DNA of 13,289 bases from Nanobdellota archaeon (GTDB lineage: Archaea; Aenigmatarchaeota; Aenigmatarchaeia; QMZP01). The notes below the pieces were generated by a model. It ran no database searches and was not told where the DNA came from. It saw nothing but the letters and a program-made list of their open reading frames with translations. The stretch covers positions 1-13,289 of the forward strand of contig JBDRJQ010000001.1 in the NCBI GenBank assembly GCA_043814765.1, written 5' to 3'. Positions 8,085 through 13,289 of this stretch are shown here, one piece after another (the stretch's first letter is position 1; each line of letters begins with the position of its first letter). The position numbers were made by a program, and so were the translations under genes.

Positions 8085-9980
8085 TCAGCCATAGAAAATA
8101 GGCCTCTTAGTCAAAAGCATTGGCAGAGGCAGTGGTCTGTAAGGGAAACCATCAGTCTGCTTCTTTATCTCTTTGACAAGTGAAGCAGTGCTTAGTGGCT
8201 TTATCTTTCCTGTCTTTCTTTCTCTAACAGCTAGCTTGCCACTCTTTTTCTCTTTATCTCCAACAACAATTATGTAAGGAATCCACTCTGATTCTGCATC
8301 CCTAACTTTCTTTCCTATAGATTCGACTCTATCATCAATATCAACACGTATGCTCTCTTTCTTGAAACTCTCTGCAATTTTTTTGCAGTAAGCAAGCAGA
8401 GAATCATTCATTGGGCACAAACGCACTTGTGTTGGTGATAGCCATAACGGGAATGTCACATTTTTTCCAGACTCTTTTTCCATGTGAGCTTTTTCCAGTA
8501 TAGCATACATCACCCTTTCTATTGCTCCGGACGGAGACTGGTGCAATATTATAGGATATTTTTTTGTGTTGTCCTTGTCAGTGAATGTTATGTCATATCT
8601 TTCCGCGTTCTCAACATCTATCTGATCTGTTGAAAGCGCTGCGGCCTTGTCCAAAGCGTCCACAAAGTTTAGCTCATATTTCAGTATGAAGTAAAAGAAT
8701 CTCTTGTCCCACATCTCTACCAGTATTGGCTTGCCCCATTTCTTTGCAATCCTTTTGATGTAGGGCCTGTTCTCTTCATAAAAATCATTAACAACTCTCA
8801 AGGCGAATTCAAGGTCGCTCTTTCCGAGGTCGAAGCCCTGGGAAACTTTTATGGAAAGGTCCAGCCTTCTGAAAAGATCTTCTTTGGCCTGTTCAATGTC
8901 CCTGCAGAATGAGTGGCAATCAGGCATTGTAAAGGCTCTAAGCCTTTTTAGTCCGCTAAGTTCCCCCCGCTGCTCAACACGAAAGCTGTATCTTGACAGC
9001 TCGTAAAGCCATAGTGGCATATTTTTGTGAGAAAAACTTGCATCATGCATCATTAAAAACTGACCAAAACATGCAGCAAAACGCAGGAAAACCTCTTTGT
9101 TGGGCGTCTGTATCCTGTATTGTCTTGCAGGGAATCTGTGCATGTATTTTTTCAATGATGGATGTTCGTAGTCATACATTATAGGAGTTTCCACCTGCAT
9201 TGCTCCTGCTTCAACTGTGCTTCTTGTAACAAAATCCTCTATCAAGGATTTTATCAGCTTTCCTTTGGGATAAAAACGGAGATTTCCTGGGTCACTACCA
9301 GGCTCATAATCAGCCAGTTGCATCTTCTTCATAAGGGCAATATGAGGAGGCTCCTGCTTTGCAACACGAACCTTCTTCATTTCATAAGCAGCAAACTTTT
9401 CCAGATTTTTGTACTTGGAAAAATTATAACCCTTTATCTTATCATCAGCCATTTCTATTTTATGAAGCTTTCCAATCGTGTCCATTATATACCATTGAGA
9501 TTTCAGCGTCTCCTCTGCTTTCAGGGCGTCAGAGATGTCATTTTTTACCTCTCCTGCTCCTTGCGCAGTTACCTGTTTGGATAGCTCAGCTAGTGGATGA
9601 CCTTTAACTTTGATATCAAAAGACTTGTACCAGCCAAAAGGCGCTCTTTTGACTGGTATTTTCTTTTCTTTCAGTAAACCTTCCATGCACTCTAATGTCC
9701 TAAGAGCCATGGAAGGGGATGACAAATCAGCGGATAAATGAGCATAAGGATAAACAACCACGTTTTTTGCTTTCACCTGCTTCAAAACCCCTTCAATCTC
9801 TGCAACTGCGTTGGCTGCCACAGCATCTGTGTTCTTCTCATCTTCCTTCTCAACAGCTGTGAAAACTACCAGAACTTCCTTAATCTTTATTGGCTTCATC
9901 GGTGTTTCTTCTGCTAACTTTATAGCCCTTTTCTGAGGCTCCCATTCAATAAAGTCAGAATGTAATAATAATAATTTCAA
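8085..9980 (-). CDS. thrS: Threonine--tRNA ligase, archaeal type with N-terminal DTD-like editing domain
   Basis: YPYAHLS, RAPFGWYK, GHPLAELS editing domain; LRFAACFGQF, FRVEQRGEL, RAFTMPDCH, ILHQSPSGAIER; C-terminal anticodon-binding domain; TTG start preceded by GTGA. Confidence 0.97.
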   Translation of the reverse strand: MKLLLLHSDFIEWEPQKRAIKLAEETPMKPIKIKEVLVVFTAVEKEDEKNTDAVAANAVAEIEGVLKQVKAKNVVVYPYAHLSADLSSPSMALRTLECMEGLLKEKKIPVKRAPFGWYKSFDIKVKGHPLAELSKQVTAQGAGEVKNDISDALKAEETLKSQWYIMDTIGKLHKIEMADDKIKGYNFSKYKNLEKFAAYEMKKVRVAKQEPPHIALMKKMQLADYEPGSDPGNLRFYPKGKLIKSLIEDFVTRSTVEAGAMQVETPIMYDYEHPSLKKYMHRFPARQYRIQTPNKEVFLRFAACFGQFLMMHDASFSHKNMPLWLYELSRYSFRVEQRGELSGLKRLRAFTMPDCHSFCRDIEQAKEDLFRRLDLSIKVSQGFDLGKSDLEFALRVVNDFYEENRPYIKRIAKKWGKPILVEMWDKRFFYFILKYELNFVDALDKAAALSTDQIDVENAERYDITFTDKDNTKKYPIILHQSPSGAIERVMYAILEKAHMEKESGKNVTFPLWLSPTQVRLCPMNDSLLAYCKKIAESFKKESIRVDIDDRVESIGKKVRDAESEWIPYIIVVGDKEKKSGKLAVRERKTGKIKPLSTASLVKEIKKQTDGFPYRPLPLPMLLTKRPIFYG

Positions 9981-10049
9981 CTAAATCACGATCCTAGTTA
10001 ATATATATGTTTTTAATAAATAAAGCTAAATCAGATATAAGTAGTCTAT

Positions 10050-10065
10050 GTATAACGGTCAAGTA
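10050..10065 (+). repeat. Degenerate copy of the spliced tRNA-Gln D-arm exon junction
   Basis: GTATAACGGTCAAGTA vs GTGTAGTGGTCAA|GCA (11007-11019 + 11051-11053): 12/16 identical, all four mismatches are transitions. Confidence 0.5.
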
Positions 10066-10066
10066 A

Positions 10067-10074
10067 TATTTAAG
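10067..10074 (+). promoter_or_regulatory. Candidate TATA box of the LAGLIDADG gene
   Basis: TATTTAAG 22-29 nt upstream of ATG 10096; no SD, so probably leaderless. Confidence 0.45.
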
Positions 10075-10095
10075 ATTTCAAATCTAATATAATAC

Positions 10096-11007
10096 ATGAA
10101 TGATAGAATTGTTTTTAAGAGGGGTAAACAAGGGGAATTTCTTAAAAAAGCAAAGGAACTTGGTAAATATTCTTGGAAAGAATTGGCTCATTTATGTAAG
10201 GTGAATGAAGGTACACTCCTAGTTAATTTAAGGACTGAGAAAACTACAGTTTCTATTGAACTATTTAATAATGTTATAAAAGAATTTCCTTCCCTAAGAT
10301 CTTATAAAAACTATATTGAAGAAATAAAACCAAGATATTGGGGATCAAAAAAGGCTGCTAAAATTACAAACAAAAAACAAGGTAAAAAAATAACTGTTAA
10401 AGAAAACAACCAAGAAATGTCAGAATTAATTGGAATAATTCTGGGTGATGGTAACTTATATTCAAATAAGAAATCAGGAAACTATTACCTTTGTATTGTG
10501 GGTGATAGGAAAGAAGAGGATTATTTAATTGGTTTTGTAAAGCCACTAATAGAGGGGTTATTTGGTACTGAGGTAAAAATAAGTAGAGCAAAAAAATCTA
10601 ATACTACTTATTTAAAATTACAAGGCAGAAGAGTTATCGAGTATTTTATTGGAAATCACGATCTAATACCTGGAAATAAAATAGAAAATAGACTTAGAAT
10701 ACCAAAATGGATACAAAAAAATAATGATTTTTTAAAGGCATGTATAAGAGGATTAATAGACACTGATGGGTCTGTTTTTAGATTATCAAAAAAGGATCCA
10801 AATATAATAAGAATATCATTTAAAAATTTCAATAATGAGTTAATGTTTGATATGAAATCATCTCTTATAAAATTAGGATATAATCCAAGCAAAGTTACGC
10901 ATAAAAGCATATATATTACAAAAAAAGAGAATGTAAATAGATATATGAATGATATAGGGTTTAATAACCCTAAACACAGAAGGAGATATGAAGAAATAGC
11001 CCTGTAG
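10096..11007 (+). CDS. Free-standing double-motif LAGLIDADG (DOD-type) homing endonuclease with N-terminal HTH-like domain
   Basis: ELIGIILGDG and CIRGLIDTDG motifs with both acidic residues kept; GNK..RIPKWI; C-terminal IGF; N-terminal SWKELAHLCKVNEGTL helix-turn-helix-like segment; no intein splice motifs; visibly more AT-rich than thrS. Confidence 0.9.
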   Translation: MNDRIVFKRGKQGEFLKKAKELGKYSWKELAHLCKVNEGTLLVNLRTEKTTVSIELFNNVIKEFPSLRSYKNYIEEIKPRYWGSKKAAKITNKKQGKKITVKENNQEMSELIGIILGDGNLYSNKKSGNYYLCIVGDRKEEDYLIGFVKPLIEGLFGTEVKISRAKKSNTTYLKLQGRRVIEYFIGNHDLIPGNKIENRLRIPKWIQKNNDFLKACIRGLIDTDGSVFRLSKKDPNIIRISFKNFNNELMFDMKSSLIKLGYNPSKVTHKSIYITKKENVNRYMNDIGFNNPKHRRRYEEIAL

Positions 11008-11101
11008 TGTAGTGGTCAATCTAGTTTTTTGTAAAAAAGACTAGGACTAAGCATGTGAGGTTCTGGACCTCTCGACCCCGGTTCGAATCCGGGCGGGGCT
11101 A
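10998..11101 (+). tRNA. tRNA-Gln(CTG) with a 31-nt intron at non-canonical position about 21/22
   Basis: Acceptor AGCCCTG/CGGGGCT plus discriminator A; D-stem GTGT/GCAT; anticodon arm TGAGG-TTCTGGA-CCTCT; T arm CCCGG-TTCGAAT-CCGGG; A1-U72 typical of archaeal tRNA-Gln; CCA not encoded. Confidence 0.93.
11020..11050 (+). other. Archaeal tRNA intron with a relaxed bulge-helix-bulge motif
   Basis: Central 4-bp helix GGTC (11014-17)/GACT (11045-48); bulges AAT and AAG; intron hairpin CTAGTTTTTT-GTAA-AAAAGACTAG. Removing it restores GGTCAAGCAT. Confidence 0.85.
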
Positions 11102-11147: not shown

Positions 11148-11378
11148 ATGGGACTATTTGATTTTCTAAAAAAGAAAAAAACAACCAAGGCTTCTAAAAG
11201 GAAAAAACCATCTAAAGTTGCTAAAATAAAAAAGAGCAACGTTACTAAAACAAAACCTATGGGTGTCAGGGTAAAGAAAACCAAAACAGGCTCTAAGTTC
11301 TACTTTGACGACATAGAGAAGAAGATAACCAAGTCGCAGAAGACCAAAGTGATACTTAGAGTTAAGACTAAAAAGTAA
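11148..11378 (+). CDS. Small lysine-rich hypothetical protein
   Basis: 76 aa ORF filling the gap; MGLFDFLKKKK N-terminus; TTTAATAA TATA-like at 11118-11125. Confidence 0.65.
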   Translation: MGLFDFLKKKKTTKASKRKKPSKVAKIKKSNVTKTKPMGVRVKKTKTGSKFYFDDIEKKITKSQKTKVILRVKTKK

Positions 11379-11389
11379 TAAAACCAGTA

Positions 11390-13289
11390 TTATTTTTTAT
11401 TTGAATCTGTTTGAATTGTTTTTTTAATTCTTTTCACAATACCAAAATTTAATACCTTTCCAAACTCTTTAACAATACCAAATTTTATTTTTCTTATAAT
11501 CCATTTACCAGAAAGATAATTTATTATTTTTGATTTAAATGCAATGTAAATTATTATGCTTGTTATAATAAATAGAAATAATGTGGCATAATTATAGTTG
11601 ATTCTCACAATTTTTGTTACATTAAACGTGTCACTACCTACGACTTTTGACTTGTAATCATCCCCATAAAGAAGAGTTACCTCTAATTTATATAATCCAC
11701 TTTCTATGCTTTCGGGTAATGCTATCTCTCTAAATAAATTAGCTTTGTTTTCTACAACAACATTTTCTGATATTTCTAATAAGATATTGCTATTTTCATC
11801 TATTATTTTAAATTCTATTATGACATTGGATTTTCCAGAAAGTTCAACATCTGTTAGTTTTATTACAGCAACAAGAGCATCTTCTACAGATATGTCTTTA
11901 TAGATAGCAGGTATCTCTAACAGCATGTCAAATGACGGTTTAAGTTCTACTACCAATTCTTCTTTTTCAAGTTCCGGAACGGTATAAGTGCATGACTGAA
12001 TTTCTTCAGGTTTGTTTTGTTGATCAGAACAGGTTCCAGTATAAGTACAAGTCCTTGTTTGAATGTTTTCTGTTTCACATTCTTCCCAACTAGTGCACTC
12101 CCATTCATGGAAGCAATTGCTTTTATCATCAGAAGGACTTGAGGGAGTTTCTGCATCATTAGAACCGCTATCAGTTTCTTCATCAGGAGTTTCTTCTGCA
12201 GAATATGTAGAAAAATGCAATACACTGAAAACAAACATTCCATTCTCATATGAAATCTCTGTACATACTGAATCCGGACATTCTTCACCGTTTAAAACAG
12301 GCCTTGGATCTGTGTAATTTAAATTGTAAACATGAACATTAGCAGGTTTGTTAAGTGCAGTCAATGCATTTGCGTTGAGCTGTATTGAGTTAAACGCTAT
12401 ATTGACATTGCCGTCTATATCTGCGCCTGAACTCAAATTTACAGCTTCTTGAAACATTATCTTACCTGCAGAAGAATTTTCGATTATAAGACCCGCTATA
12501 TTCGAGACATCAACTGAGCTCAAATCAGTGGTATTTCCTGAAAATTCAGTTGTTAGAATAACAGAGAACTGCCTGCTCTTTGAAGAGCCAATGTTTCCTT
12601 CAGAATCTGTGCAATTGATGCTCCATTCATAATTCAAAGCTGCGAGATTATTTGTCGTGAACTCCTGTATCATATTCTTTGTTACACTCGAATCAGTTTG
12701 GTTTATCTCGCCACCTATAATCAGGAAGCAGTTGTTTATGTCAGAAGAATCTGTTACGTTATAGCTAAAGGTGATGTTGCCGTCTATATCACCGCTACTA
12801 TCTGCTGGTGAGATTAAAGTTATAACAGGGGCTTCCTCATCAGATACCAAGAGTGTGTAATCAACACTCACATTGTAAAGCTTTGCTGATAAGCTAACAG
12901 AATTGCTTGTGAAATCAGCCTGATATTGGAAATACCTGTTATCAGAAACGGATAGATTTTCTCCAGAAGAGTCTGCATAACTTCCGGAAAAGCTTCCATC
13001 ACTGCAGTTGGCCAGCGCGCAGGATCTTGCCTGAAAAGTCAGGCCAGTCTCAAGCAAAAGGGCAGCCATTCCCTTGGCATTCCCATTATCACTGTTGAAA
13101 TTGGTGATGGTCTTTGTCCAGTTAAGCCCGCCATCAGAAGATTTCCACACATCTTCATCTCCTTCTATGATAAACACATTATCATCACTATCAACAATAC
13201 CGGTTTTTATGTGTTGTCCTTCGCCATTATAATCATCGTTTATCTTGGTCCAATTCTCACCCAAATCAGTCGACTGCCAGACGTCATCA
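11390..13289 (-). CDS. Large modular membrane-anchored surface protein (5' end beyond the window)
   Basis: Frame open to the window edge (DDVWQSTDLGENW). Contains two Asp-box/BNR repeats, an Ig-like DEEAPVITLISP module, an HFSTY motif, an acidic S/P linker, a Cys/Trp-rich TSP1-like module, a C-terminal TM helix and a basic tail; many N-x-S/T sequons. Confidence 0.85.
   Translation of the reverse strand, partial: DDVWQSTDLGENWTKINDDYNGEGQHIKTGIVDSDDNVFIIEGDEDVWKSSDGGLNWTKTITNFNSDNGNAKGMAALLLETGLTFQARSCALANCSDGSFSGSYADSSGENLSVSDNRYFQYQADFTSNSVSLSAKLYNVSVDYTLLVSDEEAPVITLISPADSSGDIDGNITFSYNVTDSSDINNCFLIIGGEINQTDSSVTKNMIQEFTTNNLAALNYEWSINCTDSEGNIGSSKSRQFSVILTTEFSGNTTDLSSVDVSNIAGLIIENSSAGKIMFQEAVNLSSGADIDGNVNIAFNSIQLNANALTALNKPANVHVYNLNYTDPRPVLNGEECPDSVCTEISYENGMFVFSVLHFSTYSAEETPDEETDSGSNDAETPSSPSDDKSNCFHEWECTSWEECETENIQTRTCTYTGTCSDQQNKPEEIQSCTYTVPELEKEELVVELKPSFDMLLEIPAIYKDISVEDALVAVIKLTDVELSGKSNVIIEFKIIDENSNILLEISENVVVENKANLFREIALPESIESGLYKLEVTLLYGDDYKSKVVGSDTFNVTKIVRINYNYATLFLFIITSIIIYIAFKSKIINYLSGKWIIRKIKFGIVKEFGKVLNFGIVKRIKKTIQTDSNKK

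Follow-up and report, generated by a model that had tools for sequence, protein, structure and literature searches.

A probable homing-endonuclease cassette lodged in the tRNA-Gln(CUG) gene beside thrS of a Nanobdellota archaeon

The 13,289-nucleotide (nt) stretch of DNA analyzed in the present study (hereafter, the window) is an entire 13.3-kb contig of a Nanobdellota archaeon, the genome of which comprises 859 kb in 39 contigs. We found that the region at 10043-11101 is probably a homing-endonuclease cassette lodged in the tRNA-Gln(CUG) gene beside thrS, the gene for threonyl-tRNA synthetase. The order at this locus is a putative relic of the tRNA 5' part, a TATA-like box, an open reading frame (ORF) for a LAGLIDADG endonuclease, and a complete tRNA-Gln, and the final 10 nt of the ORF are the first 10 nt of the tRNA. 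The endonuclease gene is flanked by two copies of the tRNA 5' end, one of which belongs to the complete tRNA. This is the layout of the mobile endonuclease ORFs (mORFs) of fungal mitochondria, with a weak relic match in the window. An earlier interpretation made from the letters only (the sequence-only reading) regarded the gene as free-standing beside the tRNA; instead, an old copy of the tRNA 5' part precedes it and a new copy follows it. The features of the locus are as follows.

8085..9980, minus strand: thrS, threonyl-tRNA synthetase (Pfam tRNA-Thr_ED, tRNA-synt_2b, and HGTP_anticodon)
9995..10028, no strand assigned: spacer block common to a sister species, with the presumed native tRNA promoter (alignment with G001)
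10043..10067, plus strand: putative decayed, intron-less relic of the tRNA-Gln 5' part, comprising the acceptor 5' strand, D arm, and start of the D-stem 3' strand (12/14 match; recurrence in relatives)
10066..10074, plus strand: TATA-like box, putative promoter of the endonuclease gene, directly 3' of the relic and ~25 nt before the ATG (read from the sequence)
10096..11007, plus strand: LAGLIDADG endonuclease gene, 303 amino acids, with an N-terminal helical domain, linker, and two-motif core (ORF, Pfam, and model)
10960..10967, plus strand: TATA-like octamer in a conserved C-terminal coding motif, 31-38 nt before the tRNA (read from the sequence)
10998..11019, plus strand: tRNA-Gln(CUG) 5' exon, positions 1-21, putative replacement copy (Rfam)
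11020..11050, plus strand: 31-nt D-loop intron, relaxed bulge-helix-bulge (fold; covariation of the 3' end)
11051..11101, plus strand: tRNA-Gln(CUG) 3' exon, from the D-stem 3' strand to the discriminator (Rfam)

No stop codon ends the ORF ahead of the tRNA, and the TAG that terminates it (11005-11007) occupies tRNA positions 8-10. The sequence-only reading had described a LAGLIDADG ORF ending in this manner, and the ORF, Pfam, and Rfam results confirmed it. No integrase or recombinase gene was detected between the relic and the tRNA in the ORF list or by Pfam; the LAGLIDADG gene is the sole ORF in this interval. The octamer at 10960..10967 is a possible promoter of the tRNA, a candidate that is not independent of the encoded protein motif, and a box resembling it is present in related loci. 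A comparable A/T box 3' of the relic was also present in the related loci inspected.

The protein was assigned to LAGLIDADG_3 by Pfam (E 2.7e-9, residues 212-288), with a sub-threshold match to LAGLIDADG_2 at residues 111-178. The motif aspartates D118 and D224 were invariant in alignments of 6 and of 48 sequences. The AlphaFold model, which was based on the 48-row alignment, had a predicted local distance difference test score of 93.1 and consists of an N-terminal helical domain (residues 1-88), a disordered linker, and a two-fold core. The first ~90 residues form a separate helical domain predicted with high confidence, and their sole family match, DUF6686, was below the cut-off. The best fold matches by Foldseek were I-Tsp061I (E 5.9e-10, TM 0.74 on the target) and I-DmoI (~1e-8), both of which were also matched at the sequence level. 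Pfam, the alignments, and the model together revealed the two motifs and the double alpha-beta-beta-alpha-beta-beta-alpha fold of monomeric LAGLIDADG homing endonucleases, and nothing in the predicted protein suggests a dead enzyme. The protein shares the monomeric two-motif fold with I-DmoI and I-Tsp061I, enzymes of archaeal rRNA introns, and one of its paralogues in this genome is encoded within an intron of the 16S rRNA gene. Unlike these enzymes, the window endonuclease (P0001) is encoded outside an intron and has the additional N-terminal domain of ~90 residues. The G+C content of its ORF is 27.4%, versus 41% for thrS and 36.3% for the window.

The tie between the endonuclease and a tRNA gene is general. 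A homologue was detected in 41 of 61 genomes of the same order. By manual reading, the ORF ends in or abuts the 5' end of a same-strand tRNA at 17 of the 30 loci fetched from this order, and the tRNAs are those for Gln, Asp, Pro, Thr, Arg, Ser, and Glu; Rfam alone flagged 10 of the 30 loci as tRNA-linked, and 4 other loci lie in rRNA genes. Three homologues (L022, L026, and L027) have a mirror arrangement, in which the ORF is convergent with the tRNA and its end overlaps the tRNA 3' end. A DPANN-wide set was drawn from 389 confirmed relatives of the closest clade; the 80 loci retained cover Woese-, Pace-, Nano-, Aenigmat-, Micr-, and Iainarchaeota. At 62 of these 80 loci, the tRNA could be resolved by script; 56 of the 62 have the ORF stop within the tRNA, and in the other 6 it precedes the tRNA by 1-21 nt. 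The sequence-only reading had proposed a survey of homologues for stops inside tRNA 5' ends, and this result supports the tie that it saw between the endonuclease gene and the tRNA. Cassettes with the same layout occur in many DPANN lineages, at the genes for tRNA-Gln, tRNA-Glu, and tRNA-Asp, and the ORF is broken at 5 of the 80 loci. One cassette (L097) comes from a record labelled Paceibacterota bacterium; its tRNA and endonuclease look archaeal, and a binning or labelling error is likely.

The enzyme phylogeny, made by a quick method, follows the identity of the tRNA, not host taxonomy. The tRNA-Gln-linked enzymes form one group (support 88) and the tRNA-Glu-linked enzymes two groups. The tRNA label requires 2 changes on the tree versus 12.4 for shuffles, and host phyla are mixed within the groups.

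This genome contains four homologous copies, including the window gene, and two of the four have in-frame stops. Contig C3 (14249-15306, minus strand) carries a second endonuclease-tRNA pair, with an intron at another position. A tRNA-Asn(GUU) with a 59-nt canonical intron is followed there by a LAGLIDADG ORF of 258 amino acids (15117-14341), which extends across the initial 5-6 letters of tRNA-Phe(GAA) to a stop within an acceptor-stem intron of ~40 nt. Two contig ends (C29:1-1402 and C37:405-945) each carry part of the 16S rRNA gene, the 3' part of which has an 811-nt insertion, in which the LAGLIDADG ORF is broken by one TGA, and a second insertion of 74 nt. At C37:1661-2653, an endonuclease pseudogene with one in-frame TAA adjoins a minus-strand class II tRNA with introns, and a 10-letter inverted copy of the 3' end of that tRNA follows the ORF stop; it may be a rearranged cassette on the 3' side of a tRNA.

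An empty site was found in a sister species (G001), the thrS of which is 80% identical. The same spacer block is followed in G001 by 21 nt and then by tRNA-Gln(CUG), with no endonuclease gene; a global alignment of its spacer with that of this genome (G000) was informative only for the first ~80 nt. This locus, with the same spacer and tRNA, supplied an endonuclease-less allele for the comparison of the thrS-tRNA-Gln locus across related genomes envisaged by the sequence-only reading. The homology of the window to the endonuclease-free allele ends at 10028. Moreover, a contig of a relative that is ~87% like the window joins 10028 to 10996; it is present in two groundwater runs, one of which additionally contains a 219-nt stretch that matches the endonuclease gene exactly. 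In three groundwater runs, which provided short contigs only, the endonuclease-minus form was found for this ~87%-alike relative, not for the organism itself. The cassette is thus present or absent at one homologous site: G001 is empty, and another genome (G047) has thrS, the endonuclease gene, and tRNA-Gln in the same order as the window. thrS was detected in 40 of 41 relatives, and tRNA-Gln adjoins it in many. When P0001 was used as the query, 57 of the 61 genomes of the order gave no match beside tRNA-Gln.

The putative relic in the window has the core GGTCAA at 10057-10062 and matches spliced tRNA positions 10-23 at 12 of 14 letters. As read from the sequence, its acceptor strand is unable to pair with 11094-11100. 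An equivalent feature is located at the same distance from the ATG in related loci. In these relatives, the acceptor 5' strand and D arm of the downstream tRNA are copied ~35-65 nt before the ATG, and a TATA-like box follows. The relic of L005 (the G047 locus) matches 18 of 18 letters across the spliced exon-exon joint (0/1000 shuffles, 0/16 mismatched pairs), and four orthologous tRNA-Ser loci retain a D-arm match of 10-14 nt (0-68/1000 shuffles). A gapped search with free long gaps chained small chance blocks and was replaced by an ungapped test with three control stretches. A score of at least 9 was obtained in the 85 nt before the ATG at 14 of 61 loci versus 0 of 61 in each control stretch, and a score of at least 8 at 19 loci versus 5, 3, and 3. 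The best relics were those of L132 (27/27), L098 (24/26), L133 (21/22), and L142 (21/22), and the relic of L096 skips the intron. In L005, L098, L132, and L096, the intron-less relic runs through the D-stem 3' strand and diverges after tRNA position 25-26, and the acceptor strand is lost in most relics. The two copies also share letters 5' of the tRNA, six in L133 and three in L132; the ORF therefore continues past the cassette into tRNA sequence that has been duplicated, and this sequence provides its stop. The intron-less look-alike that the sequence-only reading saw upstream of the gene is therefore real: it is an intron-less copy of the tRNA 5' end in the better-kept relatives, and appears to be a relic of the old 5' part.

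Rfam identified the tRNA at 10998-11101 (47.1 bits; cut-off, 29), with the anticodon CUG and 34 nt of the D loop left unaligned as an insertion. ARAGORN reported no tRNA anywhere in the window, and Rfam was needed. The D-arm intron that had been noted from the letters was confirmed by Rfam and the fold; we placed it at 11020-11050 (31 nt), with a 1-nt ambiguity due to flanking A's. The predicted fold of the pre-tRNA has an energy of -41.8 kcal/mol (z = -4.3), and 0 of 200 shuffles were as stable. In this fold, D-loop letters 16-20 pair with the last letters of the intron in a 5-bp exon-intron helix. Next come a bulge of 3 nt, at the 5' splice site, and a hairpin of 10 bp; an internal loop contains the 3' splice site, and the overall structure is a relaxed bulge-helix-bulge. 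By manual reading, the 3' end of the intron covaries with the D loop: GGTC occurs with GACT at 9 loci and with GGCT at 2, while GGCC occurs with GGCT at 9 and with GACT at 0. This covariation supports a real exon-intron helix. The only splicing endonuclease hit in the genome is EndA (PF01974, 76.1 bits) at C37:39348-39605, with one catalytic-domain match in a 406-amino-acid frame. This length would fit the three-unit splicing endonuclease type described for ultrasmall archaea (PMC3239211). The acceptor stem has a U6-G67 wobble here versus C6-G67 in the sister species. At least one acceptor-stem G-U was present in 15 of the 62 linked tRNAs, a count made without a control set and not used as a sign of chimeric genes.

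We consider it fairly likely, if slightly less so than the existence of the cassette itself, that the endonuclease spreads through the tRNA gene as follows. The enzyme would cleave an endonuclease-free tRNA-Gln gene in the D arm. Repair would then copy the cassette, with the relic and upstream spacer as the left homology arm and the 3' part of the tRNA as the right arm. Since a spare 5' part comes with the cassette, the tRNA of the host would remain functional. An unchanged rebuilt tRNA would restore the target; therefore, the rebuilt tRNA would have to differ from it. We tentatively suggest that, in the window, this difference is provided by the 31-nt intron at 21/22, which would alter the target in DNA and be removed from RNA by the host splicing endonuclease; in cassettes elsewhere, the same role may fall to an additional letter in the D loop or to altered letters in the D stem. 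This part of the model is more doubtful than the cleavage and repair steps. If the relic subsequently recombined with the new 5' part, the endonuclease would be lost and the tRNA would remain with its intron, as in the sister species.

We further speculate, although we hold it to be rather unlikely, that this endonuclease family creates non-canonical tRNA introns. LAGLIDADG enzymes usually cut with a 4-nt stagger. A staggered cut in the D-stem 3' strand (22-25) would have one position at the intron site, 21/22, and the other at the relic end, 25/26. The 4-5-nt gap between the intron site and the relic end fits such a cut, which is so far a numerical coincidence. The intron would then be an immunity device that travels in the spare 5' part and is left behind when the two 5' copies recombine and the endonuclease is lost, the widespread 21/22 introns of DPANN tRNA-Gln, tRNA-Glu, and tRNA-Asp would be footprints of past invasions, and introns at other positions would be attributable to other clades.

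The association between the intron and the endonuclease was surveyed in 97 distinct tRNA-Gln 5' ends from the 61 genomes, of which 4 were endonuclease-linked and 89 were usable and unlinked. The script found an insertion right after the D-loop GGYCAA in 4 of 4 linked and 19 of 89 unlinked genes (one-sided Fisher p = 0.003); 20 of the unlinked genes had an insertion elsewhere and 50 had none. L169, L197, L200, L211, and L223 were scored 'none' by the script, and by eye the unlinked count becomes 24 of 89 (p ~0.007). The 20 insertions elsewhere form a second class, right after YAG (~position 15/16) and often 40-100 nt in length, in tRNA-Gln genes without an adjoining P0001-like endonuclease. In eleven linked tRNAs without an intron, the D loop contains an additional letter between YAG and GG, which is absent from the relics of L133, L092, L085, L073, L090, and L116, and also, by eye, from that of L139. 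The intron and this extra letter are mutually exclusive, except in L132. The intron is linked to the endonuclease, but is not obligatory. The co-occurrence of the two that was expected by the sequence-only reading thus held among the tRNA-Gln genes of the order, but not across the linked tRNAs of the DPANN-wide set or in the sister species, which has the intron alone. Its proposal that the gene and intron spread jointly was not supported in its strict form, since this intron is also present where the endonuclease is absent, namely in the sister species and in at least 19 other tRNA-Gln genes; the two do not appear to be strictly co-inherited.

Several results weigh against our interpretation. 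Alone, the relic in the window is weak: 47 of 1000 shuffles scored as high, and only GGTCAA scored in the ungapped test. Across loci, 47 of 61 were below an ungapped score of 9, and 8 of the 17 order-level loci had no relic better than 100/1000 shuffles. The sole basis for a foreign origin of the new tRNA 5' part is the U6-G67 wobble. Kinship among the genomes causes both the covariation and the Fisher figures to be overstated, and the tree was a quick one. Regarding the intron, 24 of the 62 resolved linked tRNAs are 73-74 nt and have none, a count that rests on tRNA length; the D-loop labels of the script are unreliable, with five 73-74-nt tRNAs labelled as having an insertion. The intron label also needs at least 8 changes on the enzyme tree. 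The same intron is present without an endonuclease in 19 (script) or 24 (eye) unlinked tRNA-Gln genes, including that of the sister species, where the homologous intron occupies the same spot. The intron could be older than the cassette.

These results on the intron are also what would be expected if the cassette is real and the D-loop intron is unrelated to it, being one of numerous bulge-helix-bulge introns in this lineage that either pre-existed in the tRNA or arrived separately, with immunity arising from the split target or from point changes. The 20 unlinked tRNA-Gln genes with another D-loop insertion are in line with this, as is the fact that more than half of the 22 tRNA matches in the genome exceed 100 nt. 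However, we regard this explanation as unlikely. The intron accompanies every linked tRNA-Gln gene of the order and only a minority of the unlinked genes, its site at 21/22 is only 4-5 nt from the end of the best relics, and the extra D-loop letter and intron exclude each other in all but one locus. Furthermore, no second copy of the window intron was found elsewhere in the genome (best other match, 13 nt), which rules against its origin from a dispersed hairpin module, and a rebuilt tRNA without any change would restore any target inside the tRNA.

Collaborative homing is established in phages, and reported cases include the free-standing F-CphI beside an intron-bearing psbA, and mobE of T4 with I-TevIII. 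By analogy, an ordinary free-standing endonuclease gene in the spacer may cut the intron-less D arm, with the gene and intron co-converting and the look-alike having no role. The adjacency of the gene and tRNA, their shared stop codon, and the intron association within the order agree with this, in addition to the phage precedent. The likeness to the phage systems is that the endonuclease gene lies outside an ORF-less intron located at or near the presumed cut site, and joint travel is possible. In contrast, the phage introns are self-splicing group I introns in protein genes, whereas a bulge-helix-bulge intron in a tRNA is involved here; the phage systems have no duplicated gene part, and the intron is dispensable in many of the relatives examined here. 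The upstream tRNA 5' copy recurs at a fixed distance from the ATG and can be identical over 18-27 nt, including letters before the tRNA in L132 and L133; plain insertion into the spacer predicts none of this. Since the intron and endonuclease are also often apart, we consider collaborative homing to be improbable. We attach even less credence to a domesticated host factor, namely, an immobile, selected regulator or processing helper that is co-transcribed with the downstream tRNA. Intact ORFs with conserved motifs in many lineages and the constant co-orientation with the tRNA would suit such a role, but this query did not find the gene at the site in the sister species or beside tRNA-Gln in most genomes of the order. 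The broken ORFs, both DPANN-wide and in two of the four copies of this genome, the G+C content 13 points below that of thrS, and the departure of the enzyme tree from host taxonomy also argue against it. The least probable explanation is a giant intron: the fragment upstream would be the real 5' exon, and splicing would remove all sequence to 11050. In its favor, L132 and L133 retain an intact upstream copy. However, pairing of the first 7 letters of the window fragment with the acceptor 3' strand leaves 2 mismatches and 2 wobbles, the ORF is followed by a complete tRNA whose acceptor stem is good, and most relics no longer have an acceptor strand.

We consequently favor a cassette carrying a spare tRNA 5' part, and two published systems resemble it. 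Fungal mitochondrial mORFs form hybrid genes with atp6 in Allomyces macrogynus and with atp6, atp9, cox2, and nad3 in Glomus (PMC3630166). As in the present cassettes, a LAGLIDADG gene (in mORFs, also GIY-YIG) is inside a host gene and carries a spare copy of the gene end that it displaces, the native end (here, the putative relic) remains beyond the cassette and diverges, and some ORFs without a stop codon of their own continue in frame into sequence of the host gene. mORFs spread horizontally, and we draw the same likeness for the archaeal cassettes. The archaeal cassettes differ from mORFs in that they occupy a chromosomal tRNA gene rather than a protein gene of mitochondria. They replace the 5' end, with the old copy on the upstream side; the duplication amounts to only ~25 nt, and a small archaeal intron is often present in the spare part. 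In Caldiarchaeum subterraneum, Sugahara et al. (2012) described a mobile-element model of tRNA gene disruption for tRNA-Thr(GGU) (PMC3293823). A tRNA 5' fragment upstream of the element and a complete tRNA with a D-arm intron (at 24/25 in that case) downstream are common to both systems, and the Caldiarchaeum intron was proposed to arrive with the element and block further invasion. That element encodes a recombinase and was explained by attP/attB integration, whereas the sole gene in the present element is a LAGLIDADG endonuclease, which makes double-strand-break repair the likely route. A literature search, with subscription journals outside its coverage, returned no description of LAGLIDADG genes beside archaeal tRNA genes or of such cassettes in archaea or in tRNA genes.

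Elsewhere in the window, two overlapping same-strand ORFs with Toprim domains (963-1424 and 1324-2631; 153 and 435 amino acids) represent either a split or frameshifted primase-like gene or two genes. A lysine-rich ORF of 76 amino acids without a family match is located directly 3' of the tRNA (11148-11378), and an ORF of 624 amino acids on the other strand (11390-13264) gave only a sub-threshold match to a Nup98-type autopeptidase.

How introns are gained at non-canonical positions of archaeal tRNAs, and why tRNA genes become fragmented, are open questions. Integrating viruses and plasmids have been proposed as agents of tRNA disruption and introns in the Caldiarchaeum article (PMC3293823). 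The cassettes described herein are a concrete candidate agent: a widespread endonuclease family, each branch of which is found at one tRNA. Each cassette leaves the pre-invasion 5' part as a dated relic, often with an intron a few letters from the relic end. The structure of the cassettes explains why standard tRNA finders miss these genes. The present results would extend the 'bring your own spare gene end' strategy from fungal mitochondrial ORFs to archaea and RNA genes, and this family may supply endonucleases that recognize tRNA-gene sequences.

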